In this document: positions 4,620 through 33,645 of the stretch, piece after piece | Position numbering within the stretch: position 1 is the stretch's first letter | Layout: each line of letters starts with the position of its first letter | Source of the DNA: Verrucomicrobia subdivision 3 bacterium UBA3939 | GTDB lineage: Bacteria > Verrucomicrobiota > Verrucomicrobiia > Limisphaerales > UBA3939 | Direction: 5' to 3' | Assembly (NCBI GenBank): GCA_002385705.1 | Contig: DGDZ01000017.1 | Location: 19,799-83,798, forward strand | Length of the DNA stretch: 64,000 bases | Translations under genes and position numbers: made by a program | The notes under the pieces: generated by a model | Database searches by the model: none | Told to the model about the DNA's origin: nothing | What the model saw: the letters and a program-made list of their open reading frames with translations, nothing else

Positions 4620-5276
4620 ATGGATGCCAATTTGATTGTTGACGGGCTGATCATGTACCTCGGCCTGGTGGTGCTGCTGACGTTCCACGAGTTCGGTCAC
4701 GCGTGGACGGCGATGCGATGCGGGGACGACACGGCCAAACTTCGGGGCCGCGTGTCCCTGAATCCGATCGTCCACATCGATCCGATCGGGACCGTGGTAA
4801 TGCCGCTGCTGATGATCTTTCTGTCTGCGAGCGGTTCCGGCCTCGGGAGGTTTTTGATCGGCTGGGCGAAACCGGTGCCGGTGAATCCGCACAATCTGCG
4901 GCGGCCAAAGCTGGATGACATTCTCGTCTCGCTGGCGGGGCCATGGATGAACGTGATGCTGGCGGCGGTGCTGGTGGGTATGGCGCGCCTGGGGGTGGCC
5001 GTGGAACTGCACGCGGCGGCGGAGTTCTGTTGGGACATGGCGCTGATCAGCCTGTTCCTGTGCTTCTTCAATCTGCTGCCGATCCCGCCGCTGGACGGTT
5101 CGCAAGTCATGCGCGTGCTGATAGGCATGAGTTTCGAAACCTATTATCGCATCGCGCAGTACGGCTTCATCCTCATCATCCTTGTGTTGCAGATTCCGCT
5201 GGTGCGCTGGTTGATCGCGGTGGCGAGTCGCGCAACGCGGGATCTGCTGGCGCGCTTGTTCGGACTGGCCGGTTGA
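4620..5276 (+). CDS. Site-2 protease family (peptidase M50) integral membrane metalloprotease
   Basis: HEFGHAW (HExxH) lies in the first TM segment. LNPIVHIDPIGT and the NLLPIPPLDG motif are present, and the protein is multi-TM. Confidence 0.85.
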   Translation: MDANLIVDGLIMYLGLVVLLTFHEFGHAWTAMRCGDDTAKLRGRVSLNPIVHIDPIGTVVMPLLMIFLSASGSGLGRFLIGWAKPVPVNPHNLRRPKLDDILVSLAGPWMNVMLAAVLVGMARLGVAVELHAAAEFCWDMALISLFLCFFNLLPIPPLDGSQVMRVLIGMSFETYYRIAQYGFILIILVLQIPLVRWLIAVASRATRDLLARLFGLAG

Positions 5277-5310
5277 CGCTCGAAAACGGCGAGGTCAACA
5301 CCTCTCGGTG

Positions 5311-6814: not shown

Positions 6815-8587
6815 CTACTTCATCTTCACCTGCTCGAACCGCGGCGCGAGCAAGTGATGGATGGCGAACGTCACCAGGTAGGCAAAGGCGCAGATGCCGA
6901 ACAGGATGGCGTACCCGCCGGTGACGTTGTTGGCGGCGCTGAACTTGTCGAGGATCTTTCCGCAATAGATGGGGAACATGATGCCGCAGAACGCGCCGGC
7001 GAGACCGCCGATGCCGGTGACGGAAGCGACGGCCCGCTTCGGGAACATGTCCGAGACGGTTGTAAAGAGATTGGCCGACCATGCCTGGTGGGCGGAACCG
7101 GCGAGTGCGATCAGGAGCACCGCCATCCAATCGCCAACGTGAGTGACGCCGAGAATCGGCAGAACGCAGCAGGCGAAGATGAACATGCCGGTCTTGCGCG
7201 CCCGGGTGACCGACCAGCCGAACTTCGTCAGGTATCCTGTCACCCAGCCGCCGGCGATGCTCAACACCGTGATAATGGTATAGATCGTGACCAGATGAAT
7301 CCAACTCTGCTTGATGTCGAGTCCGCGCGTCTGTTTGAAGTAGTCCGGCAACCAGATCAGGAAGAACCACCAGATCGGGTCGGTCATGAACTTGGCGACA
7401 ATGAACGACCACGTCTCGCGATGCCCGAGCAGTCCGGGATCCGTCTCCTCCGGGCCGTACGCGTTGGGTCCGGGTTTGCCCGGGACGAATCCCGCCACAG
7501 CGAACCCGGCCAGGGCCAGAACAACAGGCCATAATGAAACCAGCTTGAGCCAGTCACCGCCCCACTCGAGGCCCCGCGCCCCAGCCAGGGATCGCAGGCC
7601 GGCTGCAATGACAATGGCGATTGCCAGTGGCACGGCAATCATAGCCGTGGACTTGCCAAGATCGTGAAAGCGCCGCGCCTGCAATGAGAGCAACGCCAGC
7701 GTCGCCACGGTCGCCCATACCACCCCGATGATCTGGCTGACGACCGTTCCCGTGCGGCCAAGCACGGTAAACAGGTCCATCAAAACGAACGCGAAAACGA
7801 AGCTCAATCCCACCAGAGCCAGGCCAACACCCCACAGGGAAGCGCGCGGACAGCGGCCTTGAAACGTGAACATGGCCGCAACAAGTCCCCTGGACCGCTC
7901 GCCCGCGGCGTCGGCCGCCGCCTCGTCGAGATCACTGCGAATATGGTCCAGTTCCGCCTTCGACAGGCGTTTGACCTTGTCGGGGACGTTGTAGAAGGGG
8001 ATCCAGAGGAACAACCAGAGGAGGCCGGCGATGCCGGCTGCGATAAAAGCCGCCCTCCATCCGAATTGATAGGCAATCCAGGGTACGATCGCCGGGGCCA
8101 GGATGGCGCCGACGTTGGTGCCCGCGTTGAAAATACTCGTGGCGAAGGCGCGTTCCTTTTTCGGAAACCAAAGCGCAGTGGCCTTGATGGCGGACGGGAA
8201 GTTGCCGCCTTCACCCAACCCAAGCGCCAGGCGCGCTGTGAAGAAACCGGCGGCAGAGCCGACGGCGGCGTGTCCGATGGCCGCAAGGCTCCACGCCGCA
8301 ATGGATACCGCGTAGCCGATCTTCGTCCCGAAGCGGTCGATGAACCAGCCGAAGAGCAGCAGGCCGATCCCGTAAGCCCCCTGGAAAGCGCCGTTGACAC
8401 GGCCGAAATCCGCGTTTGACCAGCCCAATTCCTCGTCGAGGATCTCCTTGATCAGCGAAAGGATTTGGCGATCCACATAATTGATCGTCGTGGCAAAGAA
8501 GAGGAGCGCGCAGATTACCCATCGATAATTGCCAATCGCAGCAGCGACGGACGACGAGGCCGGTGGTTGAGCAGTCGGCTTTTGCAT
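6815..8587 (-). CDS. MFS transporter (ACS/ExuT hexuronate-type) with a DUF805-like 4-TM domain inserted in the central loop
   Basis: MFS/ExuT hallmarks are INYVDRQILS, GLGEGGNFPS and DPIWWFFLIWLPDYF. Residues ~231-381 carry DUF805 hallmarks FTFQGRCPRASLW, ARRFHDLGKS and GKPGPNAYGPE. At 590 aa it is well above the ~430 aa I expect for ExuT-type transporters (from memory). Confidence 0.85.
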   Translation of the reverse strand: MQKPTAQPPASSSVAAAIGNYRWVICALLFFATTINYVDRQILSLIKEILDEELGWSNADFGRVNGAFQGAYGIGLLLFGWFIDRFGTKIGYAVSIAAWSLAAIGHAAVGSAAGFFTARLALGLGEGGNFPSAIKATALWFPKKERAFATSIFNAGTNVGAILAPAIVPWIAYQFGWRAAFIAAGIAGLLWLFLWIPFYNVPDKVKRLSKAELDHIRSDLDEAAADAAGERSRGLVAAMFTFQGRCPRASLWGVGLALVGLSFVFAFVLMDLFTVLGRTGTVVSQIIGVVWATVATLALLSLQARRFHDLGKSTAMIAVPLAIAIVIAAGLRSLAGARGLEWGGDWLKLVSLWPVVLALAGFAVAGFVPGKPGPNAYGPEETDPGLLGHRETWSFIVAKFMTDPIWWFFLIWLPDYFKQTRGLDIKQSWIHLVTIYTIITVLSIAGGWVTGYLTKFGWSVTRARKTGMFIFACCVLPILGVTHVGDWMAVLLIALAGSAHQAWSANLFTTVSDMFPKRAVASVTGIGGLAGAFCGIMFPIYCGKILDKFSAANNVTGGYAILFGICAFAYLVTFAIHHLLAPRFEQVKMK

Positions 8588-20176: not shown

Positions 20177-21556
20177 TCAGGTCAGGACGCCTTCGAGTTT
20201 TCCGGTGGAATCGCCGTGCTGCTCGATATCCGGCGCGCCCATGCGGTCGGCAATGCTCAGGAAGAGGTTCGTCAACGGAGTGGACTTGACCTTCACGTAG
20301 CGTCCCGGCCGGAGAGCGCTGCCGCCTCTTCCGGCCAGCAGGATCGGCAGATTCGTATGCGTGTGGCGATTGCCATCCGCATTGCCCGAGCCATAGACGA
20401 TCAGCGAATTGTCCAGAAGCGACCGGCCGTCCACGTCCCTGGTGTTTTCCATCTTTTCGAGGAACCGCGCGAACTGCTGCACGTACCAGCGGTCGATCTG
20501 CTCGACTTGGCGGATCATTTCCGGGTTGTTCTTGTGATGCGTGAGGTCGTGGTGTCCCGAGGAAATGCCGATGTGCGGGAAGGGGCGGTTGCTGCCTTCG
20601 CCGGCGAGCAGCATGGTGGCGATGCGCGTGGAATCGGTCTGGAACGCCAGCAACAGCATGTCGAACATCAGCGCGATGTGCTCCTCGTAGCTGGGTGGAA
20701 TGCCGGGGGGCGCAGCCATGTCCGGGTTCGGCACGGGCATGCGTTCGGCGCGCTCGATGCGTTGCTCGATGTCGCGCACGCTCGTCAGGTAATGGTCGAG
20801 CTTGTCGCGGTCGCGGCCCTCGAGGTTGCGGCGGAGACTTCGCGCGTCTTCGAGGACGAAGTCGAGGATGGAGCGCTGCTCCTGCCGGCGGCGTTCGAGA
20901 TTGGCGCGGCGTTCGTCGCGCGACCCGGATCCGAACAGCCGTTCGAACACGAGGCGCGGATTGGATTCCGGCGTGAGCGGCTGGGTGGGCGAGCGCCAGG
21001 ACAGGTTGTATTCGTAGGCGCAGGAATAGCCGGAATCGCAGTTGCCGGACTTGCGCACCGCGTCGCAGGTGAGTTCCAGCGACGGGAACCGGGTCAGGTG
21101 GCCGATGCGTTGCGCGAGGACCTGGTCGATGGAAACGCCGGCATAGATGTCCGAGCCCGCGGTCTTCCGGATGCGAACGCCCGTGAGGAACGTGCCGCCC
21201 GCGCGCGCGTGATCTCCGGCGCCATCGGGTCCGGGGTTGGCGCTGAGGTTGTCCAATCCGGAGATGAGCTGCAACTGGTGGCGGACTGACTCGAGCGGTT
21301 CCAGGGTTTTCGGCAGCGCGAAGTCGCGGCCGCCGTTGCCCGAGGGCCACCACGAGGACGGTATGGTTCCGTTAGGCACGTAGAAGACGGCCATTCGCAC
21401 GGGCGCCACCGGCGCCGGCGCGGCCAGGACGCTCAGGGGTCTCAGCGATTCAAAGGCGGGCAGCGCGAGACAGGCGCCGATGCCGCGGAGGAAACGGCGG
21501 CGATTCACTTCGATCTGGAACGGTCCGTTGCGATGGGGTTGCGCGGAGGTTTTCAT
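20177..21556 (-). CDS. DUF1552 domain protein with Tat-type signal
   Basis: The start at 21556 forms an ATGA overlap with the upstream stop. MKTSAQPHRNGPFQIEVNRRRFLRGIGACLALPAF is a twin-arginine signal. The remainder is typical of DUF1552 (HHDLTHH, LLAGRGGSAL). Confidence 0.85.
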   Translation of the reverse strand: MKTSAQPHRNGPFQIEVNRRRFLRGIGACLALPAFESLRPLSVLAAPAPVAPVRMAVFYVPNGTIPSSWWPSGNGGRDFALPKTLEPLESVRHQLQLISGLDNLSANPGPDGAGDHARAGGTFLTGVRIRKTAGSDIYAGVSIDQVLAQRIGHLTRFPSLELTCDAVRKSGNCDSGYSCAYEYNLSWRSPTQPLTPESNPRLVFERLFGSGSRDERRANLERRRQEQRSILDFVLEDARSLRRNLEGRDRDKLDHYLTSVRDIEQRIERAERMPVPNPDMAAPPGIPPSYEEHIALMFDMLLLAFQTDSTRIATMLLAGEGSNRPFPHIGISSGHHDLTHHKNNPEMIRQVEQIDRWYVQQFARFLEKMENTRDVDGRSLLDNSLIVYGSGNADGNRHTHTNLPILLAGRGGSALRPGRYVKVKSTPLTNLFLSIADRMGAPDIEQHGDSTGKLEGVLT

Positions 21557-24072
21557 GGTGAACTTCTTTCTGCGATCTGAACCGGGTTTCGGTCGGGTGT
21601 TTCCATCCTGGCGGCCTGCTCGGAGGCTGGCGCCGCCTGCGCGCGGCGTTTCTGGAAGGCCGCGGACTCGACAATGCCGAACAGGAGCGGCTGGAATCGG
21701 CCGTCGTCCGCTTCGAGCTGCCGGACGATCCGGTCCACGGTTTCGGTGTCGTAATACTCCAGCCCGCGGCCGAGCGCATAGGTGAGCAGCTTTTCCGTGA
21801 GGCAACGATAGAGATCGCGCCGGTGTTCGTCGGCCAACAGCCGTTTCAACTCGCGCACGCCGCTGAAGGATTCGCCGGTGATCAAGCGGCCCGTGGCATC
21901 GATCGGCTGATTGCGCTCCTGCTCGCGCCACATGCCCAGCGCATTGAAGTTCTCGAACGCCAGCCCGAGCGGATCCATCCGCCGATGGCACGACGCGCAC
22001 ATGGGGTCGGCGCGATGGGCCTCGAGCGATTCGCGCAAGGTGGGGAGGCGGTCCTTGAACTCCGTTTCCGCCGCCTCGAGCGCGGGCACGTTGGCCGGCG
22101 GAGGCGGGGCGGGCGTGCCGAGGATGTTGTCCAGGATGAACAGGCCGCGCTTGACGGGCGACGTGCGGTCCGGGTTGGAGGTGACCACGAGCACGCTGGC
22201 GTGCGTGAGGACGCCGCCGCGCGGGCTGTCCTCGGGCAATTGAACCTTGCGCATCTCCGCGCCGCTGACGCCGGGAATGCCGTAGAGCGAAGCGAGCTTT
22301 TCGTTCAGGAATGTATAATCGGCGTCCAGCAATTCGATCACGCTGCGGTTTTCGCGCATGACCGTGGTGAATACCAGCTCGGTTTCGCGCCGCATCGCCA
22401 GCCGCAGCTCGCCGTCCAGCTCGATCCGCGGCCCGTCCAGTCGTCCGCGATTTCGGCGCAACTCCCGTTCGCGCCCGGCGTCACGCGCCAGGACTACGGG
22501 GCCGTTAATGGAGATGCCGTCGAGGTCGCGGAGACGCAGCCATTGGCCGGTGAAATTCTCCACCAGCGCATCCGCTCGGGGATCGGCCAGCATGCGGGCG
22601 ACCTGGGCGCGCAGGTTTTTCCGCAGCACGCCCCGGGACGCCAGCCGGAAGAGTTCGTCGTCCGGCATCGTGGACCAGAGAAAGTATGACAACCGCGAGG
22701 CCAGCGCGTATTCATCGACGGGCGCATACGGTCCCTCGGTGCCGGGCGCGCTTTCCTCGAAGCGGAAGAGGAAGCGCGGCGACGAGAGCGCCGCGGCCAT
22801 GGCGTGGGCGATTCCGGCTTCAAATGTCTTTTCCGGTTGGGTGTAAACGGATTCGGCGAGCGACACCAGCCTGTCCACGGTGTCGCGGTCCGCAGGCCGG
22901 CGAAAGGCCCGTGTTGCGAACTTCTCCAGAAGCTCGCCCGCCAGCGCGCGGCGTTGGGCATGGTCTGACGGGATGTTGGGAGGGAAGAAGCGATCGTAAT
23001 TGGCGGGTTTGGTCCAATGGCGTTCCTCGACGGGGCCGCGGACGGCAACGGAGACGAGCCGGAGTTCGAGCGCGTGGACCTGTGTGGTAAGGGATCCGGA
23101 CGGTTGCCAGTCCAGGCGCAGCGCGCGTTCGCCGATCGTCCATTGCTGGGGGATTTCGATGCGGAACGTTTCGTTCTCGTGCCAGCCAAACTCCTGCCGC
23201 CACTGTTCCTTGCCGTCCACTTTGAGCGAGAGCGCGGATTGCGCATCGATCTGTTCGCCGGTGCCGCGCACAGCCAGGTTCAGCACGATCCGGTAGGTGC
23301 CTGCGTGGCGCGCGGGGACGGAGGTTTCGACGCTGGCGGGTGTTCCGAAGGGCAACGGCAGCATCTGGCTGGTCCGGTTGTAGCCGGCCTGGCGTGCGTT
23401 GGCCCTGTCACCGCCGGTCGAACGGAAACGATTGCCCGGAATCACGCGCTCCGGCATGACGCGCGAAACCGTGGGTACGGCCCGGTTCACGATCTCGTTG
23501 GCGGCGCTGATGTATTTCTCGAGCAACATGGGTGAGACCGTCAGCACGTCGCCGATCGTGTCGAACCCATAACCCGTGTCGTCCGCCGGCAGTTCTTCCT
23601 CCGCGTTGAAGTCGATTCCCATGAGATCCCGGATGGTGTTGCGGTACTCAACGCGGTTCAGGCGGCGCAAGGTGACGCGGCCGGGATCGATGTTTTCCGG
23701 ATCGATGCGGAAGACGTCGCGTTTGATCCAATGCTCGAGGACCTGCAGATGCTCCGCGGAGAGGCGGGGTTTGTCGGCGGGCGGCATCAGGCCGGCGCGC
23801 ACGTTCTTGAGCACGCGGGTCCATAACGAATGATCGAGCAGGGCGTTTGGCGCCAGGTCATCGAACGCCACGTCGCCCTTGTTCATCCCGTCGCCATGGC
23901 AGTCGTAACAGTGCTGAATGAGAATCGGTTCGACGTTCTTTTTGAAAGCGGCGACGGCCGGGTCTTCGACGGCACAGAGCGGACGGCATTGGAGGAGAGC
24001 GAGAAGAACGAAACCGAGCCGTGCGATTTCCAAGGCACGTCGCTGCTGGCGATAACGCAACCGGCTTCTCAT
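21553..24072 (-). CDS. Cytochrome-c domain protein of the DUF1587/DUF1592/DUF1595/DUF1588/DUF1585 (PSD1-like) type
   Basis: 839 aa. The haem motif CYDCHG lies near the N-terminus and a second Cys pair is CASCHRRMDPLG. The architecture is typical of partners of DUF1552 proteins. Confidence 0.85.
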   Translation of the reverse strand: MRSRLRYRQQRRALEIARLGFVLLALLQCRPLCAVEDPAVAAFKKNVEPILIQHCYDCHGDGMNKGDVAFDDLAPNALLDHSLWTRVLKNVRAGLMPPADKPRLSAEHLQVLEHWIKRDVFRIDPENIDPGRVTLRRLNRVEYRNTIRDLMGIDFNAEEELPADDTGYGFDTIGDVLTVSPMLLEKYISAANEIVNRAVPTVSRVMPERVIPGNRFRSTGGDRANARQAGYNRTSQMLPLPFGTPASVETSVPARHAGTYRIVLNLAVRGTGEQIDAQSALSLKVDGKEQWRQEFGWHENETFRIEIPQQWTIGERALRLDWQPSGSLTTQVHALELRLVSVAVRGPVEERHWTKPANYDRFFPPNIPSDHAQRRALAGELLEKFATRAFRRPADRDTVDRLVSLAESVYTQPEKTFEAGIAHAMAAALSSPRFLFRFEESAPGTEGPYAPVDEYALASRLSYFLWSTMPDDELFRLASRGVLRKNLRAQVARMLADPRADALVENFTGQWLRLRDLDGISINGPVVLARDAGRERELRRNRGRLDGPRIELDGELRLAMRRETELVFTTVMRENRSVIELLDADYTFLNEKLASLYGIPGVSGAEMRKVQLPEDSPRGGVLTHASVLVVTSNPDRTSPVKRGLFILDNILGTPAPPPPANVPALEAAETEFKDRLPTLRESLEAHRADPMCASCHRRMDPLGLAFENFNALGMWREQERNQPIDATGRLITGESFSGVRELKRLLADEHRRDLYRCLTEKLLTYALGRGLEYYDTETVDRIVRQLEADDGRFQPLLFGIVESAAFQKRRAQAAPASEQAARMETPDRNPVQIAERSSP

Positions 24073-26058: not shown

Positions 26059-26496
26059 ATGCTGATGCGAAGACAACGACCCAACGACTGGACGCCGCTG
26101 GCCCGGTTGCGTGACCAGATTGATCGCATGTTCGACCAGCCGATGTTCGGCCTGGACATGTTCGGCGGATGGAACCCGGCGGTGGATGTGCTGGAGGACA
26201 AGGATAAGCTGGTTGTGAAGGCGGAGCTCCCGGGGTTCAAGCGAGAGGACCTCAATGTCACCCTGCAGGGCGATCATTTGGTCCTGAGCGGCGAACGCAA
26301 ATTTGAGGAGGAAAAGCAGGAAGCCGAGTTCTATCGGTCCGAACGTTTCTACGGCCGGTTTCATCGCGCGATTCCACTGCCGTTCAGTGTCGAGCAGGAA
26401 AACATCCAGGCGCGCTACAAGGACGGCGTTCTCACGGTGACGCTGCCGAAGAGCGAGAAATCGCGGGGCCGGCAGATTGAAGTGGCGGTGGAATGA
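26059..26496 (+). CDS. Hsp20/alpha-crystallin family small heat-shock protein (paralog 2)
   Basis: Strong SD taaggagaaaggag. PAVDVLEDKDKLVVKAELPGF...SGERK...ERFYGRFHRAIPLP...ARYKDGVLTVTLPK. Confidence 0.9.
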   Translation: MLMRRQRPNDWTPLARLRDQIDRMFDQPMFGLDMFGGWNPAVDVLEDKDKLVVKAELPGFKREDLNVTLQGDHLVLSGERKFEEEKQEAEFYRSERFYGRFHRAIPLPFSVEQENIQARYKDGVLTVTLPKSEKSRGRQIEVAVE

Positions 26497-26529
26497 CGTC
26501 CGTTTGAGGCGGGTGCGGCGCCGGGTGCC

Positions 26530-27702
26530 TTACAGGAAGAACAATCGTGCGAGGCCGACGACGGCGCCGCCGGGCACGAGCCAGAGAGAGTTTGTCCGGT
26601 GGCGGAGCAGCAGCCAGAGGGCTGTCGCGCCGACGAGAAGGGTCACCCAGTCGATGAGCGCGCTGCGGACCAGGTGAAAGGTGACCACGGCCATCAACGC
26701 GAGGGACGCAGCGACCACTCCGTCGAGAAACGCTCCGGCAAGGGCTGATTTCCGAAGCCACGGCACCAGGGGGCCGCTTGCCGCCACGAAGACAAACGCC
26801 GGCAGAAAGATTCCGGCTGTCGCCACCAGCGCGGCCGGGGTGCCGCCGAGCACGTATCCGATAAACGTGGCGGTGGTGAACACCGGTCCCGGGGTGAACT
26901 GCCCGACCGCCACGGCATCGAGCAATTGTTCTTCAGTGAGCCAGCCGAATCGCTCGACGATACCACTTCGCAGGAACGCCAGCAGGACATAGCCGCTGCC
27001 ATAGAGCACGGATCCCACCTTCACGAAGAACCAGAACAGCGGCCAGAGTCCAAAGGCGGCCCCCGCGGCCGATGTGGTGGATGCCGGAGCTGCGGCTGCG
27101 ACCAGCGCCTTCAGCATCGGCGGAGGCGTTGCCACTGCCGGCGCATCGGCGGATCGTCCGGCCCGCGCCAGGAGAGCGATGACGCCCGCGCCGAAGAGCA
27201 GCGCCAGCTCGTTCGCGCCGGAGAAATTCAGAGTCGCCGCCGCCACCGCGATGATTGCCAGCAGTCTGGTTTTCAGCGCGCTCCTGCCCAGGTTCCACAA
27301 TGCCTGTCCGACGATGGCGATGATGACGGGTTTGATGCCATAGAGAATCGCTTCCACCGAAGGCAGTTCGCCGTAGCGGCGATAGACCCAGCCGCACGCC
27401 ATGACGATGAGCGTGGCGGGAACAATGAAACAGACGCCTGCCACGACCAGCCCTGCAAACCCGGCGCGGCGATACCCGATGTGAATCGCCATTTCGGTTG
27501 AGTTCGGGCCCGGGATCAGATTGGTGGCGCCCATGAGGTCCAGGAATTCTTCATGGGTCAGCCATTTTCGTCGTTGAACCACTTCCTGCTCCATCAGGGC
27601 GAGGTGAGCTGCAGGACCGCCGAAACCGATTGTTCCCAGTTTCAGAAAGAGCAGCGCAAGAGCTTTCAGCTCCGCCGTTCGCGTCGCCGGTTGAGTGTTC
27701 AC
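26530..27702 (-). CDS. chrA: Chromate ion transporter (CHR family)
   Basis: FLKLGTIGFGGPAAHLALMEQEVV..RKWLTHEEFLDLMGATNLIPGPNSTEMA, and a second half with GQFTPGPVFTTATFIGY. I place the start at GTG 27702 (GTGA overlap with the upstream stop), giving ~390 aa. The track ORF start at 27930 adds an Arg-rich, non-CHR extension. Confidence 0.88.
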   Translation of the reverse strand: MNTQPATRTAELKALALLFLKLGTIGFGGPAAHLALMEQEVVQRRKWLTHEEFLDLMGATNLIPGPNSTEMAIHIGYRRAGFAGLVVAGVCFIVPATLIVMACGWVYRRYGELPSVEAILYGIKPVIIAIVGQALWNLGRSALKTRLLAIIAVAAATLNFSGANELALLFGAGVIALLARAGRSADAPAVATPPPMLKALVAAAAPASTTSAAGAAFGLWPLFWFFVKVGSVLYGSGYVLLAFLRSGIVERFGWLTEEQLLDAVAVGQFTPGPVFTTATFIGYVLGGTPAALVATAGIFLPAFVFVAASGPLVPWLRKSALAGAFLDGVVAASLALMAVVTFHLVRSALIDWVTLLVGATALWLLLRHRTNSLWLVPGGAVVGLARLFFL

Positions 27703-29867
27703 GGCTGAAACGGATGGCTCGCGACGTGAAGCACCGCGAGGCAGACGCGCGCGCGCTCCGGATCGTTCAGGCACAGCGCTCCTTCGCGAATGCGGGGCGA
27801 CGGCTCGCCTTCCATCCTGAGCGGATAACGGTTTCGCAATGCGCAAGCGTAATCCGGGAAGCCCTCGAATCCCTCCGTCCGCACGGTTGAAAGGCCCAGC
27901 AACCGGAACCAGCCATAACTGCCGGGGCACGCGCGGCGCATCAGTTCGAGTGTCAATCGGCCCATCGTGTACCGCGGATTGATTTCAACGATCGGTTTCA
28001 GCCGGGCCGTTCCGTCCAGGTCGCGATAGACGAAGGCGTCAATTCCCAGCGGGCCGACATAACCGGTCCTGTGCAATTCTCCTTCCAGTGCGTTGAAGAG
28101 GTCGGAGTAAAACAGCCGCAGGCGCCGTTTCAGATCCAACACAAGCGGTCGGGCCGTTTCGTCGGGCGCGCTGGTGCGGGAGTCGAGCGCCGCCAGCACC
28201 TGCGTGGGGATGCGCTTTTCATACCCGGGTTCGGTCGTGTTGCCCCGGAAGCGTCCCCTGCGATCGTTGATCAGGCCCGTGTAACCGCACAGTTTCAAAC
28301 CGTCCGCCGTCATCTCCATCTGAATGGAGAAATCCACCAGGCGATCCATCCATGGCTCGACGACGACGCCGTGGCCGCCCTGGAATGCCCGCGAGGTCCA
28401 GGAACGATGCGATTCCAGGGAGTCGTTGGCTGAGAGACGGAGCGCGTTGTTGCCTGCGACACCGAAGGCATGCTTCAGCACGATCTCGCAGTAGCCGCGC
28501 TCGCGAAGGGTTGAAATGGCCAGAGCCGCTTCGTCCGGCGTTCGCGCGGCAATGCCGGCTGTCCCGGGCGAACAGAGCCAGGGTTCAGCGGCATGCGCCT
28601 CGAGTTGCTGGCGAAGAAGGCGCGCACTCCATGCTTTCGAGTAAAGCTCCGCGACGCGCGGATTGAAGCACTGCTCGGCCGTGCGCGCTCTGCCCGTCCA
28701 CTTCGCAAACAGCGGTTGCAACAGTTCCACGCTGTCCGGCCCCCACGCCCACGGTTTCAACTGGCCGATCTTCCGATGCTCCAGCGCTTCCGCGATGCGG
28801 ATAGAGAGCGAACGGCGGTCTGTGGCGAGGCCGACGGGCGCGTTCAGTTCGACAAATTCCGGGAGATCGAACCCCGCCCGCTTGATGCCGCTCAGGAACT
28901 CCACGGACGGACGGCGTTCCACGAGGACGATGTCGTCCTGCCGGGAGAGGAACTGCGGCAGGTTCTCGAGGTCGCGCGCGAGTTCGGCCTGCGAGCGGCG
29001 CGGCGTGAACGCGGGCCCCTGGGCCATCCATCCCTCGGCAAACGGGTTGAAGAGAAAGATGCCCGGGGTGCGGCCACGCGATTGCGAATACACCTCGAGC
29101 TCCGCAATGAACCGCTCATCGAAGCCCGCCGCGCGCCGGCCCTCGACATTCAAAGTGAATCCCTTGGCACGCTGCGGCGACAGGGGAAACTTCAGTTGCC
29201 GGCAGAACGCATCCCAATCGCTTTCGTTTGGGTTTTTCCAGCGGCGGAACCACTTCAATCCGTAGGCGACGTGGCCGATCTCGTCGCGGTAGATGCCGTC
29301 CAGCAAACGGGCGGTGGCGTTGTCTCCCGCTTCTTCAAACGCGCGCCCATAATGACGCGCGAAATCGAGGTTCGCCTGCTCGAATGTCAGGCAAAGCCCG
29401 GCGACGTAGTCGATCGGGTTTTCCATGGGCGCGACGGCGCGCCAGAAGTAACCGCTGACGGGCAGTTCGCCGAAGTGAATGCCGCACTCCCGCATCCGCG
29501 AGAGATAGAGTCGCGTGTGTTCCTGTTCGTCCTGCAAGGTTTGCAGGACACCCATTCGGAAAGCGGCGGGCGCGTTGGGAAATCGCAGGAGCACCAGGGC
29601 CATCAGCTCCGTTGCCAGCAGTTCGTGATTGGCGAAGAAGTGGAGCAGCCGGCCGCGGTCCTCCGGATTGCCGATGCGTTCGATGCCGGGAAACGCGTTG
29701 CGCCCGGTGCCGCCCGGTTTGAAGCGCAGTTCGGCCGGGCGCCCCGGCCCCGACGGAGTCTCGATCGGCGCGCCCGGCTTTTCGTCGGTAATGGGGCCCG
29801 GGGGCTCGAGTTTCTCCTCCAGCGAGGTGGCGAACAACACGCGCTCGGCGAATTCGCGGAGTTCCAT
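27699..29867 (-). CDS. Fusion protein: N-terminal DUF455 ferritin-like (di-iron) domain + C-terminal pre-ATP-grasp/ATP-grasp ligase-like domain
   Basis: N-terminal ~260 aa: HFFANHELLATELMAL, LQDEQEHTRLY (ExxH), LTFEQANLDF, IYRDEIGHVAYG (ExxH). C-terminal ~450 aa: EIVLKHAFGVAGNNALRL, VVVEPWMD, GIDAFVY...KPIVEINPRYTMG. Confidence 0.75.
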   Translation of the reverse strand: MELREFAERVLFATSLEEKLEPPGPITDEKPGAPIETPSGPGRPAELRFKPGGTGRNAFPGIERIGNPEDRGRLLHFFANHELLATELMALVLLRFPNAPAAFRMGVLQTLQDEQEHTRLYLSRMRECGIHFGELPVSGYFWRAVAPMENPIDYVAGLCLTFEQANLDFARHYGRAFEEAGDNATARLLDGIYRDEIGHVAYGLKWFRRWKNPNESDWDAFCRQLKFPLSPQRAKGFTLNVEGRRAAGFDERFIAELEVYSQSRGRTPGIFLFNPFAEGWMAQGPAFTPRRSQAELARDLENLPQFLSRQDDIVLVERRPSVEFLSGIKRAGFDLPEFVELNAPVGLATDRRSLSIRIAEALEHRKIGQLKPWAWGPDSVELLQPLFAKWTGRARTAEQCFNPRVAELYSKAWSARLLRQQLEAHAAEPWLCSPGTAGIAARTPDEAALAISTLRERGYCEIVLKHAFGVAGNNALRLSANDSLESHRSWTSRAFQGGHGVVVEPWMDRLVDFSIQMEMTADGLKLCGYTGLINDRRGRFRGNTTEPGYEKRIPTQVLAALDSRTSAPDETARPLVLDLKRRLRLFYSDLFNALEGELHRTGYVGPLGIDAFVYRDLDGTARLKPIVEINPRYTMGRLTLELMRRACPGSYGWFRLLGLSTVRTEGFEGFPDYACALRNRYPLRMEGEPSPRIREGALCLNDPERARVCLAVLHVASHPFQP

Positions 29868-29877
29868 GGTGTGGACT

Positions 29878-29953
29878 TGGTACCCCCACCCCGAATTGAA
29901 CGGGGATCCGCGGTTTAGGAAACCGCTGCTCTATCCATTTGAGCTATGGGGGC
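29878..29953 (-). tRNA. tRNA-Arg (anticodon CCT), CCA encoded
   Basis: The reverse complement GCCCCCA-TA-GCTC-AAATGGATA-GAGC-A-GCGGT-TTCCTAA-ACCGC-GGAT-CCCCG-TTCAATT-CGGGG-TGGGGGT-A-CCA folds as a cloverleaf. The anticodon loop is UU-CCU-AA. Confidence 0.9.
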
Positions 29954-30092
29954 GCATCGGCCGCCACAACTTACCCGGCGTGTCAATCCTGTAAAACATA
30001 GAATGCGCCCGCGAGCTCAAAAACGTTGAGACGCCGCCAAAAAGCTTTCCGCAGCTCGACGAAGAGCTTCTGAATGCGGGGCGCCCGGCGCG

Positions 30093-30512
30093 TTACGCCA
30101 CCGTGCGACAGGGTCGGGCCGCAACGCCGCGCAGCAACGCCTTCACCCGGGCGACCAGGTCAGAAGGCGAGATCGGTTTCGAAACAAAGTCCGTCGCGCC
30201 GGAGTCGAACCCTGTACAGCGAGGCAGTTCTCCCGGCATGCCCGAAACCATCAGCACAGGAACACGCGCGGTGGATTCGTCGCGTCGGAGCAGCTCGCAA
30301 ACAGCAAACCCGTTCACGTCGGGCAGCATGACGTCCAGAAGGACCAGGTCGGGCTGCAGCGATCGGGTCTTTCTGACCGCCTCCTGGCCGTTCGCGGCCG
30401 TGGCGATGGCGAACCCATGTTCCTTGAACTCCAATCGCAGCAGTTCCAATTGGTCCGGATCGTCGTCCACCAGCAGGATCTTTTTCTTCCTGAAGAAGCT
30501 TGTTTCCTTCAT
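30093..30512 (-). CDS. Stand-alone response regulator receiver (CheY-like) protein
   Basis: MKETSFFRKKKILLVDDDPD...LQPDLVLLDVMLPDVNGF...PVLMVSG...KP. I place the start at ATG 30512. Confidence 0.85.
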   Translation of the reverse strand: MKETSFFRKKKILLVDDDPDQLELLRLEFKEHGFAIATAANGQEAVRKTRSLQPDLVLLDVMLPDVNGFAVCELLRRDESTARVPVLMVSGMPGELPRCTGFDSGATDFVSKPISPSDLVARVKALLRGVAARPCRTVA

Positions 30513-30735
30513 TGCATGCGGTTGTGTTCGTCCTGGACCGCCGGCACTGAGCAAAACGAATGCCGCTCAGGAAGGCGCGGAGGTTCGCTTTTTCGCTTTA
30601 AGTCATTAATCCTGAGGGCTGTGCACAAAGGCGGGTTGCGTGGCCTGCACCGGAAGACATCTGAATATGGTTTCGCGAATTTGAGTCTGATGGATATAGA
30701 AGGCGCAGTAAACCGGCGTATCTTCTATTGCGACA

Positions 30736-32931
30736 ATGAAAACACAAAGTTACCGGAAGTGGGTGTGGGCGGCGGCGATCGCCGCGCTGCCGTTGATGGG
30801 TTGCACCCAAAGGACGGCCTATTCCGCCTCTGCTGAGTTTGCCCTCAGCAACCAACCCGCTCCGCTGACCCCTGCGCCGGTGGAGGTCCCGACCGAACTT
30901 GTGGAACCCGCCATCGATCCGGCTCCCGAGGAGTTGGCCACGAACAATCTCGAAACAGCGTCCGGTCGGGTCGTGTCCACCCCTGAGACAGCCATCCGGT
31001 CCACGCTGTCCTATCCGGCCCGTGAAGTTGTCAAACTCGCGCAGGCCGGCGTCGATGAAGGAGTCATGCTCGCCTTCGTCACCAACTCCACGCTCGTCTT
31101 TGGTCTGACATCGGATGACATCATCTATCTGAACGATCTCGGAGTGCCTGAATCGGTCGTGACGGCGATGTTGCAGCGCGACCAGGTGGCCCGGTCGGAT
31201 TCGGCTGTGGCGAGCGCGCCGCCGGTTTACACGAATCAGGCGGACACCGGTGCCGTCGGTGCAGCGCCCATTCCGTACGCCGCGGAGGACACGAGCGTTT
31301 ATCCGGAGCAAACAGTGACAGCCGGGGCGCAGTACGTGGAGCAACCCGCGGGCAACGTTGCCTACACGTATTTCTACGATGCGCTCGCGCCGTACGGAAC
31401 ATGGATTGAAGTGGATGGCTACGGCCTGTGCTGGCAGCCGACGGTGGTCGTGGTGAATCGCGACTGGCATCCCTACTTCCATCGGGGCCGGTGGCTCTAC
31501 ACGGATTACGGCTGGTATTGGGCATCGGATTACTCCTGGGGTTGGGCGCCCTTCCACTATGGTCGCTGGTTCCGGCATTATCGCTGGGGCTGGTGCTGGG
31601 CGCCGGATACGGTGTGGGGGCCGGCGTGGGTGAGCTGGAGATATACGACCGATTATTGCGGCTGGGCGCCCTTGCCGCCCACAGCGTGCTACCGGCCCGG
31701 ATTCGGGTTCACATGGTATGGCCGCTCGGTCGGGTTCAGTTTCACATTCGGCCTGTCGGCTCATCACTTCGTCTTCATTCCGACGCACCGCTTCACCGAT
31801 CGGCATTTCCATCGGCATCGCCTGCATCATCAGGACGTGGATCGCGTTTTCCACAGGACCCAGGTGGCCAACCGGTTCGATCATGACCGGGACCGCCGGG
31901 TGATCAATCGCGGGGTGCCGGTTGAGCAGATCGCGCGAGCGACACGATCGGAAATCCGCCCGGTCCGCTTGCGTGAAGTGGATCGCCCGACCAATGCGCG
32001 ACTGGAGCAGGGCAGGACGCCCGGCGAGCGAACCCTGGCCGTGTTCCGTCCCAAACTGCCTGAGCCCGACACGGATCGGCCGATCACGCGGGTCGGCGAA
32101 GGCGTGCGCCCGGCTCCGCGGCAGATCGCCGCCCGCAACGACTCCCGGACGCGGACCGAATCGTCGCTGGTGCCGCAAGTGCCGCGGCGGCAGCCGCAGG
32201 AAGCCGCTGCGGTTCGTGAAGCGCGGCGGCCCAACCTCCGCGAGACGGCGCCCGTCCAGCGGCCGTCTGGAGACAACGATCGCACCACAACCGTCCGGTC
32301 CGAGCGCAATGGATCTCTGATCCTGCGCGGGCCGGGACGCTCGCCTGCCGGTGAGAACCCGGCGCCGGAACGGCCTGCAACGCCCAATCAGCAGGATCGT
32401 CCACTGGCGAACGGTCGTGAGGCGACTCCGCCCGCGGCGCAGATCCGGCCGCGGAACAACATCCTCGTTCCGCAGCGGCCGAATCGGGTCGAGCCGGCAC
32501 CGCAAGCACCGGTCGTGACTCCGCCGGCGCAGCAGCCCAACCGGCAGATTGAACGGACTGTGCCTCAACGACCGCAGCAGAATCAGCGCGTGTTTCCGCA
32601 GACACCGCAACCGCGCGCGATCACGCCGCCGACGATCAATCAGGCTCCGAGGCAGCAGCCGCCGGTGCAGGTGCCGCGGCCCGAACCCAGAGTGCAGCAG
32701 CCGCGCCTCAATCCGCCTCAGCAGCGGGTGGCGCCGGCGCCCGCGCCCGCGCCGCGCATCGAAGTGCCACGAGTGGCACCGCGCGTGGAAGCGCCGCGGG
32801 TTGCGCCGCGGATTGAGAGCCGCCCGGCGCCTCGCATCGAGGCGCCGCGTCCGGCACCCGGGGTGGAACGGTCGGCGCCCGCGCGAAGCCAGGGCGGAGG
32901 AATTCAACGCGGCGGCGGCCGCAATCGCTGA
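30736..32931 (+). CDS. Lipoprotein with a Trp/Tyr-rich DUF6600-like core and a long Pro/Arg/Gln-rich repetitive tail
   Basis: Lipobox AALPLMGC. Core: YGTWIEVDGYGLCWQP...WYWASDYSWGWAPFHYGRWF...WCWAPDTVWGPAWVSW. Tail: ...APRIEVPRVAPRVEAPRVAPRIESRPAPRIEAPRPAP. Confidence 0.7.
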   Translation: MKTQSYRKWVWAAAIAALPLMGCTQRTAYSASAEFALSNQPAPLTPAPVEVPTELVEPAIDPAPEELATNNLETASGRVVSTPETAIRSTLSYPAREVVKLAQAGVDEGVMLAFVTNSTLVFGLTSDDIIYLNDLGVPESVVTAMLQRDQVARSDSAVASAPPVYTNQADTGAVGAAPIPYAAEDTSVYPEQTVTAGAQYVEQPAGNVAYTYFYDALAPYGTWIEVDGYGLCWQPTVVVVNRDWHPYFHRGRWLYTDYGWYWASDYSWGWAPFHYGRWFRHYRWGWCWAPDTVWGPAWVSWRYTTDYCGWAPLPPTACYRPGFGFTWYGRSVGFSFTFGLSAHHFVFIPTHRFTDRHFHRHRLHHQDVDRVFHRTQVANRFDHDRDRRVINRGVPVEQIARATRSEIRPVRLREVDRPTNARLEQGRTPGERTLAVFRPKLPEPDTDRPITRVGEGVRPAPRQIAARNDSRTRTESSLVPQVPRRQPQEAAAVREARRPNLRETAPVQRPSGDNDRTTTVRSERNGSLILRGPGRSPAGENPAPERPATPNQQDRPLANGREATPPAAQIRPRNNILVPQRPNRVEPAPQAPVVTPPAQQPNRQIERTVPQRPQQNQRVFPQTPQPRAITPPTINQAPRQQPPVQVPRPEPRVQQPRLNPPQQRVAPAPAPAPRIEVPRVAPRVEAPRVAPRIESRPAPRIEAPRPAPGVERSAPARSQGGGIQRGGGRNR

Positions 32932-33036
32932 AGCGGCCATGCGAATGTTCCGGGGCAGCCTCATTTTGAAATCGTTGTCGCAGCGTGAATTGTTTTCTCC
33001 TTTTTCCTCGCGCCAGCCGCTGGCACTATCCGCGCG

Positions 33037-33645
33037 ATGGGCATCACGCCGCAGCAATTCAAGAGACTCGAAGAGCGCCTCGCCCGCCGCGCGCGCTCTG
33101 TCTCCCCGGTGCCCGAATCCGCCCTCCGACTCCCCGCCGGCGGACACCAGGTCATTCTTGGAATCGACCCTTCCCTGCGAGGAACCGGTTACGGTGTGAT
33201 CCGGTGCGGGCGTCCGCATCCTGTCGCGCTGGCCTACGGAACCATCACGTGCCCTCCCTCCTGGGAGCATTCGCGCTGTCTCTTGCGAATCGTGCAGGTG
33301 TTGCGCGATGTGTTGAAGCAGCACCGGCCCACCGTCTGTGCCGTCGAAGGTATTTTCTTCGCGCAGAACCTCAAGACGGCCATTGTCATGGGCGAGGCGC
33401 GCGGCGCGGCGTTGTGCGCCGTCGCCGAGGCGGGACTCGAGATCTACGAAATTGCGCCCCGCAAGGTGAAGCAGGCCATTGCGGGCTACGGCGCGGCCCA
33501 CAAGCCTGCGGTGGCGAGAATGGTTCAGCATATTCTGCGTTTGGCGCAGCCGCCCGAATTCGACGCCGCCGACGCGCTGGCGCTGGCGCTGGCGCACGCG
33601 CAGGAGAACGGGCGTTATTTTCTCACGGCTCCTCGAAAGGTGTGA
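33037..33645 (+). CDS. ruvC: Crossover junction endodeoxyribonuclease RuvC (with ~38-aa N-terminal extension if the ATG at 33037 is used)
   Basis: ILGIDPSLRGTGYGVI, AVEGIFFAQN, KQAIAGYGAA.K..V, DAADALALALAH. Confidence 0.9.
   Translation: MGITPQQFKRLEERLARRARSVSPVPESALRLPAGGHQVILGIDPSLRGTGYGVIRCGRPHPVALAYGTITCPPSWEHSRCLLRIVQVLRDVLKQHRPTVCAVEGIFFAQNLKTAIVMGEARGAALCAVAEAGLEIYEIAPRKVKQAIAGYGAAHKPAVARMVQHILRLAQPPEFDAADALALALAHAQENGRYFLTAPRKV

Follow-up and report, generated by a model that had tools for sequence, protein, structure and literature searches.

A DUF455 ferritin-like domain fused to a predicted ATP-grasp ligase in Verrucomicrobiota, and its incidental overlap with chrA

Among described proteins, those closest to the C-terminal half of the enzyme considered here are peptide and amino acid ligases of the ATP-grasp type. 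PGM1, the pheganomycin peptide ligase, couples a non-proteinogenic amino acid to a peptide (PMC8939145). LdmS has been proven by experiment to ligate L-Asp to L-Met and is a stand-alone enzyme of housekeeping type that acts on L-amino acids (PMC9486568). DUF455, the other family involved, is a widespread orphan family conserved across bacteria, plants and animals; literature searches for DUF455, PF04305, COG2833 or IPR007402, or for ATP-grasp together with ferritin-like, returned incidental mentions and no function, the domain being mentioned in plants, fungi and corals besides bacteria. The subject of the present analysis is a gene in which a DUF455 domain is fused to an ATP-grasp ligase. It lies in a 64,000-nucleotide (nt) stretch of Verrucomicrobia subdivision 3 bacterium UBA3939 (assembly GCA_002385705.1, contig DGDZ01000017.1, positions 19,799 to 83,798, forward strand), the whole of which is referred to as the window, and it overlaps a gene for a ChrA-type transporter. 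The balance of evidence tips slightly toward a self-contained bifunctional enzyme that combines di-iron oxidation with ATP-dependent ligation and acts on a common cellular substrate.

The fusion open reading frame (ORF) is real, and its two domains are those described in an earlier reading of this DNA made from the letters alone (the sequence-only reading). Its start codon was deduced to be correct because the N-terminal M1-E2-L3 is identical throughout an alignment of 38 homologs, and the protein sequence is present on at least 21 public contigs. All of the motifs quoted in the sequence-only reading were located: NHE (residues 80-82), DEQEH (113-117), FEQ (162-164) and DEIGH (195-199) in the first half, and KHAFGVAGNNALRL (465-478), VVVEPWM (501-507) and EINPRYTMG (628-636) in the second. 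Both domain assignments, the conservation of both sites, the breadth of the family and the absence of any conserved partner, chrA included, are firm.

The N-terminal part was proposed to be DUF455, and this was borne out by a Pfam score far over the cut-off (162.8 bits versus 34.3 bits; E = 1.4e-47), with residues 37-254 aligned to positions 33-246 of the 247-position profile. The AlphaFold2 (AF2) model of residues 1-266 (pLDDT 94, pTM 0.92) shows long helices at 68-95, 101-127, 151-179 and 183-210 that form a four-helix bundle. With this bundle and two E...ExxH sets, the domain is predicted to be of the ferritin-like di-iron kind. Residue conservation was counted over 321 full-length homologs, which are 34-69% identical to the window protein. 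The candidate ligands H76, E82, E87, E114, H117, E163, E196 and H199 were identical in all 321, so both of the ExxH motifs (E114xxH117 and E196xxH199) to which the sequence-only reading had drawn attention are invariant. H76, E82, E114, H117, E163, D168, E196 and H199 were likewise invariant in five stand-alone proteobacterial DUF455 proteins. On the basis of these alignments, the domain appears to have a full set of di-iron carboxylate ligands (E, ExxH, E, ExxH), supplemented by extra invariant His, Asn and Asp residues.

The fusion-type DUF455 domains form a subfamily with its own signatures, namely ANHELLAxE, LTFEQANLD and a six-residue RAKG insertion. In the alignment this insertion (PQRAKG, residues 231-236) was unique to the fusion type and not found in stand-alone DUF455 proteins; R233, A234 and G236 were kept in at least 98% of the 321 homologs and K235 in 93%. 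The description of the domain as MiaE-like held at the level of the superfamily and failed at the level of the family, as the MiaE model of Pfam (PF06175) matched 0 of 26 diverse family members at E values up to 5 and the Foldseek match to MiaE had an E value of 0.59. The aldehyde-deformylating oxygenase model (Ald_deCOase) gave one weak match (E = 0.29) among 26 family members. When the N-domain was compared to the PDB by Foldseek, its neighbors were nearly all ferritin-like and most of these were di-iron proteins. Dps, bacterioferritin, toluene monooxygenase, aldehyde-deformylating oxygenase and MiaE were among the matches. The highest TM-scores were those for aldehyde-deformylating oxygenase (TMq 0.51) and MiaE (TMq 0.48).

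These data also bear on whether the N-domain is an enzyme at all. Only the ATP-grasp half might be catalytic, with DUF455 acting as a metal, O2 or peroxide sensor, an iron handler or a peroxide detoxifier that regulates or protects the ligase. Such a role would be consistent with the best Foldseek E values, which belonged to Dps and bacterioferritin types, with weak Pfam matches to EncFtn-like (10/26 family members) and Rubrerythrin (3/26), and with the occurrence of the ligase half without DUF455 but with its active site retained. It would also fit the gene order in two alphaproteobacteria, where a small peroxiredoxin gene is situated directly 5' of a stand-alone DUF455 gene (Sinorhizobium, L096 5363-6675; Sphingomonas, L101 4426-5702), the two genes overlapping by 4 nt in Sphingomonas. 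This adjacency suggests that DUF455 is tied to peroxide or oxidative stress in alphaproteobacteria, although the observation was made post hoc and is not general. However, N80, H81, Q115, Q164, N166, D168, R43 and R244, which lie near the ligands, were kept in 320 or 321 of the 321 homologs (N80, H81, N166, D168, R43 and R244 being reported as invariant), and conservation of this kind points more to an enzyme that binds a substrate than to a sensor. Furthermore, the top TM-scores were obtained with monomer-sized enzymatic di-iron proteins (aldehyde-deformylating oxygenase and MiaE). A purely regulatory or protective DUF455 domain is thus considered unlikely.

The C-terminal half had been read as a pre-ATP-grasp plus ATP-grasp ligase, and both the fold and the conserved active site support this. 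The full-length model had a pLDDT of 79.6, with most of the core blocks of the C-domain at about 90. Compared to the PDB by Foldseek, it gave 320 matches with E of 0.001 or less (best E = 3.9e-12), and the 50 that were listed were all ATP-grasp proteins. The top matches of the C-domain were PGM1 (3wvq, 3wvr), the Streptomyces peptide ligase 8ynd/8ynq, LdmS (7r8q) and BesA, with E values from 4e-12 to 2e-9 and target TM-scores of 0.58-0.66; after LdmS and BesA, the list continued with PurK and biotin carboxylase types. K465, D610, N630 and R632 were kept in 321/321 homologs, E628 in 320 and E504 in 312, and the family-specific D312 and W373 were also invariant. By the general features of the ATP-grasp superfamily, we take K465 to be the ATP-binding Lys, E504 the hinge residue and D610 and E628-x-N630 the Mg ligands.

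The sequence-level data for this half were much sparser. A family profile searched against PDB sequences had LdmS as its sole match (E = 0.039), in an alignment that spans the ATP-binding Lys strand (K465) and the hinge Glu strand (E504), while a phmmer search of the PDB with the window protein returned only a bacterioferritin (E = 1.7). Below threshold, Pfam matches among the 26 members were to PreAtp-grasp (3), DUF3182 (2), ATP-grasp_3 (1) and PGM1_C (1). Thus, of the Pfam assignments anticipated in the sequence-only reading, DUF455 was obtained, whereas no ATP-grasp or preATP-grasp model came over threshold. The predicted fold together with the conservation of the active site nevertheless confirms the ATP-grasp identity of a module that curated sequence models leave uncovered. 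It was deduced that public records of the fusion homologs go no further than 'DUF455 family protein' because Pfam and NCBIfam miss the ligase half.

Each half also occurs by itself. The whole protein had 3,664 matches in the homolog database, with identity and length stated for the best 120, all of which were full length and 58-68% identical. The ligase half matched 2,942 clusters (at 50% identity) at E values no higher than 1e-3; it amounts to an ATP-grasp family of about 2,900 such clusters for which there is no model. The best 149 of these clusters included 97 that were fused and 14 C-only clusters covering the whole ligase domain; about 10 C-only homologs have their start 1-15 residues from position 266, with every catalytic and family-specific residue present. 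One stand-alone ligase gene (P0147) is located 105 nt from a divergent gene, with no DUF455 inside 8 kb. A degraded DUF455 remnant was looked for by tblastn 5' of four stand-alone ATP-grasp genes (L087-L090), and none was found. Since stand-alone ligases and stand-alone DUF455 proteins both exist, the two halves were deduced to be autonomous modules that have been joined in the fusion family.

Relatives of the fusion protein are carried by at least 549 GTDB species genomes. The best 80 of these were from Verrucomicrobiota (Limisphaerales/Pedosphaera, Opitutales and Verrucomicrobiales), mislabelled record titles aside. Titles naming Klebsiella, Bifidobacterium, Bifidobacteriaceae and Akkermansia muciniphila (L012, L015, L024, L026, L028, L043 and others) look wrong, as these GTDB-representative genomes, assembled from metagenomes, carry a Verrucomicrobia-type gene that is 54-61% identical to the window protein. 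A search from a distant member found the fusion also in Silvanigrella aquatica, Pigmentibacter, Fluviispira and other Bdellovibrionota and in SAR324, Latescibacterota and 'Deltaproteobacteria' genomes. Among the carriers, Silvanigrella aquatica, Pigmentibacter, Fluviispira, Pelagicoccus and Thalassobacterium are in culture, which makes genetics and biochemistry on the fusion feasible. In plasmid and phage collections, only distant stand-alone homologs in ordinary contexts were found.

A bifunctional enzyme was inferred from the combination of complete di-iron and ATP-grasp sites, their strict conservation across several phyla and the solitary nature of the gene. In this mechanism, the ligase half would use ATP and Mg to turn a carboxylate of the substrate into an acyl phosphate and would then couple it to an amine, for which an amino acid, an amine metabolite or an amino group of a peptide or protein are candidates. 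The di-iron half would use O2 or peroxide to oxidize the same substrate or the product, hydroxylation and N-oxygenation being possible reactions. The fusion polypeptide would then catalyze two consecutive steps of one short pathway. The substrate is probably a common metabolite or macromolecule, since the gene has no conserved neighbors and is widely spread in Verrucomicrobiota and other phyla; the first of these points also makes a pathway dedicated to a peptide or natural product unlikely.

Several points weigh against the bifunctional enzyme. Residues 266-722 matched no Pfam or NCBIfam model above threshold, so that the ligase half does not have the ATP-grasp call from Pfam that might have been expected. 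The Foldseek matches of the N-domain in the PDB were all weak (best E = 0.046), from which it was deduced that no DUF455 structure has been solved, and the top E values were for Dps and bacterioferritin-type iron storage proteins, not oxygenases. The metal-site geometry, the binding of two Fe or Mn ions by the N-domain and their reaction with O2 or peroxide are putative, as is any shared orientation of the two active sites. Likewise, the metal content, the oxygenase and ligase chemistries, the substrate and a target common to both halves are deduced, and fusion by itself is no proof that both halves share one molecule. Finally, the window is from a metagenome-assembled genome, presumably of anaerobic-digester origin, and in that setting an O2-dependent step would need explaining.

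Table 1. Features of the fusion gene and its immediate neighbors, in window coordinates
Feature	Position	Strand	Extent or product	Basis
DUF455 + ATP-grasp fusion ORF	27699..29867	-	722 aa, ATG start	listed and translated
N-terminal DUF455 ferritin-like domain	29082..29867	-	residues 1-262	Pfam, AF2, Foldseek
Putative di-iron ligand codons	29271..29642	-	H76, E82, E87, E114-x-x-H117, E163, E196-x-x-H199	conservation
FPLSPxRAKG segment	29160..29186	-	residues 228-236	alignment with stand-alone DUF455
C-terminal pre-ATP-grasp + ATP-grasp ligase module (predicted)	27702..29072	-	residues 266-722	fold
ATP-grasp catalytic residues (predicted)	27972..28475	-	K465, E504-P-W, D610, E628-x-N630-x-R632	conservation
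CHR-family (ChrA-type) transporter gene	26530..27774	-	downstream of fusion	Pfam, TIGR00937
tRNA-Arg(CCT)	29878..29953	-	ends 10 nt before fusion ATG	ARAGORN; Rfam 60.5 bits

The protein encoded downstream of the fusion matched Chromate_transp of Pfam in two stretches (E = 3.4e-83) and TIGR00937 at 324.2 bits versus a cut-off of 171.7 (E = 1.6e-96), and by these scores it is assigned to the CHR transporter family. An overlap of the fusion stop with a GTG of this gene had been claimed and was found: the TGA (27701-27699) shares bases with an in-frame GTG (27702-27700) to give GTGA, though the chrA start is ambiguous. The GTG at 27774 has a strong Shine-Dalgarno sequence, AAGGAG, 4 nt ahead of it and would yield 414 aa and an overlap of 76 nt, the NCBI record starts at the CTG at 27744 (404 aa), and JGI starts at the GTG at 27702 (390 aa). 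Two further gene callers start at internal ATGs (354 and 334 aa), but these starts truncate the ChrA domain, as the TIGR00937 match already starts at residue 19 when the protein is taken as 390 aa. Since all three of the upstream starts overlap the fusion ORF, co-transcription of the two genes is likely in this organism.

On the strength of this overlap, the sequence-only reading had proposed that the product or substrate of the fusion enzyme crosses the membrane through the ChrA-like protein in place of chromate. It had also held that homologs never found next to a CHR transporter would make the adjacency one of chance. The linkage was examined by tblastn with the window ChrA at 82 other loci, comprising 80 Verrucomicrobiota genome loci plus L001 and L002. 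No chrA was found within about 10 kb of the gene at any of the 82, matches being confined to four loci from the same organism, and chrA was likewise missing beside the remote homologs, those of Silvanigrella and SAR324 among them. Other lineages carry mutually unrelated genes downstream, such as those for a DeaD helicase, ABC-F, BrkB and an alpha/beta hydrolase. In addition, the transporter scores as an ordinary chromate efflux protein of TIGR00937. The proposed functional linkage is contradicted by these data, and export through ChrA is largely refuted and close to negligible as an explanation. It follows from the overlap that the two genes are co-expressed in this organism only, not that they share a function. 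The overlap is incidental and is the sole distinctive trait of an otherwise ordinary family member, and no new transport role for ChrA follows.

On its upstream side, the gene adjoins a tRNA-Arg on the same strand (Table 1), and given this 10-nt spacing the fusion mRNA may arise as a tRNA-mRNA co-transcript. As a conserved upstream feature, the tRNA-Arg was rejected, being absent in 60 other loci. All-against-all clustering of the neighboring ORFs over 83 loci gave no conserved neighbor, as no cluster was present in more than 14 loci, and the largest clusters were generic ABC ATPases and a lineage-limited DeaD helicase. No riboswitch or other Rfam element was found in the window beyond the tRNA-Arg or upstream of the gene in 8 diverse loci, and a promoter and terminator scan of positions 26300-30700 gave nothing over shuffled expectation. 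The window surroundings are of the housekeeping type and include ruvA, ruvC, priA, HSP20, ribBA, an asnS/aspS-type tRNA synthetase, dnaB and bamA.

Because the nearest solved structures include the natural-product peptide ligases PGM1, 8ynd and BesA, the fusion could tailor a peptide natural product, ribosomal or non-ribosomal, in the manner of PGM1, with the precursor gene having escaped notice. However, the sequence-only reading had seen no precursor-peptide ORF nearby, and indeed the tRNA 10 nt upstream and the overlapping chrA downstream leave no room for one. Moreover, no neighbor was conserved over the 83 loci, the housekeeping flanks do not make up a biosynthetic cluster, and the gene's presence in hundreds of species genomes contrasts with the sporadic distribution of a biosynthetic cluster. 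A tailoring function is accordingly regarded as very improbable.

A weak recurrence among the neighbors was that of RNA helicases. A DeaD-type DEAD-box helicase gene adjoins or is near the fusion in 11 Limisphaerales loci, in both gene orders (L001, L002, L007-L011, L013, L020, L036 and L037). Other DEAD or DbpA helicases are near it in the Opitutales locus L079 and in the Silvanigrellaceae loci L091, L092 and L103, and in Sinorhizobium (L096) a DEAD-box helicase gene is situated two genes after the stand-alone DUF455. This may hint at a link to RNA or the ribosome, although it was noticed post hoc and is absent from most loci. The target could then be a macromolecule of translation (a ribosomal protein, a factor or RNA), which the di-iron half would hydroxylate and to which the ATP-grasp half would add an amino acid; RimK and the hydroxylases MiaE and EpmC offer analogies. 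The presence of ABC-F and RF3 genes near the fusion in some loci would be consistent with such a target, and PGM1-type ligases accept peptide amino termini (PMC8939145). Against this, the helicases are missing in most loci including the window, DEAD-box genes are multi-copy, and the tRNA-Arg beside the window gene is unconserved. We therefore view a translation target as doubtful.

Other observations were made in the neighborhoods of the homologs. The fusion in SAR324 (L105 9186-9959) and the stand-alone DUF455 in Ralstonia (L095 6764-7687) are each followed immediately by a co-oriented alpha/beta hydrolase gene, at the positions given. A single family for these two hydrolases was rejected (20% identity, pairwise E = 1e-8), and a Parabacteroides esterase was unrelated. 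A 119-aa ORF between DeaD and the fusion in some loci was considered as an L7Ae/YlxQ-type RNA-binding protein and was unsupported by Pfam and PDB searches. Two copies of the Rfam element Acido-Lenti-1 were present on opposite strands of L002 (5093-5138, minus; 5240-5285, plus), between TonB-like and DeaD genes. In Silvanigrella aquatica (L103 12333-14742, minus strand), the 23S rRNA matched Rfam in two pieces (model positions 15-2044 and 2103-2453) with the last ~470 model positions unmatched, and the DbpA-type helicase gene is immediately beside it; this rRNA may be fragmented or hold an intervening sequence.

Elsewhere in the window, a 999-aa ORF without a Pfam match (30598-33597, minus strand) overlaps a 731-aa gene annotated as DUF6600 (30736-32931, plus strand) and is probably a shadow ORF of the kind common in high-GC DNA. 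Positions 20177-24072 (minus strand) encode a PSCyt/PSD multi-domain protein (DUF1592, 1588, 1587, 1585 and 1595 plus cytochrome c) and, after it, a DUF1552 (HXXSHH) protein; such gene pairs are characteristic of Planctomycetes and Verrucomicrobia. The gene at 6815-8587 (minus strand) encodes a transporter of the major facilitator superfamily (MFS) with a DUF805 match (residues 239-379) within its MFS_1 region.

As the sequence-only reading had supposed, no characterized member of the fusion could be named: the PDB, NCBIfam and the literature searched contained no characterized member, solved structure or curated model of either the fusion or DUF455. Since each domain belongs to a well-known superfamily, the fusion was deduced to be a new, unstudied architecture of known kinds rather than a new kind of system. 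Its covalent link to a ligase of the PGM1/LdmS type gives a testable hypothesis on the kind of substrate that DUF455 acts on. More speculatively, and with only a small chance in our estimation, the fusion would serve as a 'Rosetta stone' for DUF455, in which the di-iron domain oxidizes the carboxylate- or amine-bearing molecule that the ATP-grasp ligase conjugates, together constituting a new two-step modification. That molecule could possibly be a translation-associated protein or RNA, as the DEAD-box genes hint, or the outcome could be a new small-molecule conjugate linked to oxidative stress.

With respect to the known ligases, the best structural likeness to residues 266-722 is that of PGM1 (3WVQ, 3WVR) and 8YND/8YNQ (E = 4e-12 to 3e-10, target TM 0.59-0.66), which have the same layout of pre-ATP-grasp, ATP-grasp and C-terminal domain. 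The identity is only 14-18%, however, with no sequence-level match to these proteins in the PDB searches, and PGM1 is without a fused di-iron domain while the fusion is without a natural-product cluster or precursor peptide. LdmS (SAOUHSC_02373 of Staphylococcus aureus; 7R8P, 7R8Q) also resembles the C-terminal half (Foldseek E = 4.5e-10; profile E = 0.039), the sequence match being marginal at 11-12% identity. Unlike the fusion, it sits in a conserved hmrA/ldmS operon, and it has no oxygenase partner. With respect to DUF455, the stand-alone proteins of Ralstonia (AUS44774.1) and Sinorhizobium (UIJ93556.1) are of the same Pfam family and share the ligand set, and are likewise uncharacterized; they are 27-29% identical to the window protein and differ from it in having no RAKG insertion, ANHELLAxE, LTFEQANLD or ligase domain. 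Aldehyde-deformylating oxygenase (8FHC, 5UX1) and MiaE (6ZMA) have the di-iron four-helix fold and a size similar to that of the N-domain (TMq 0.48-0.51, TMt 0.62), although the Foldseek E values are weak (0.05-0.6), and DUF455 is set apart from both by its additional invariant His, Asn and Asp residues.

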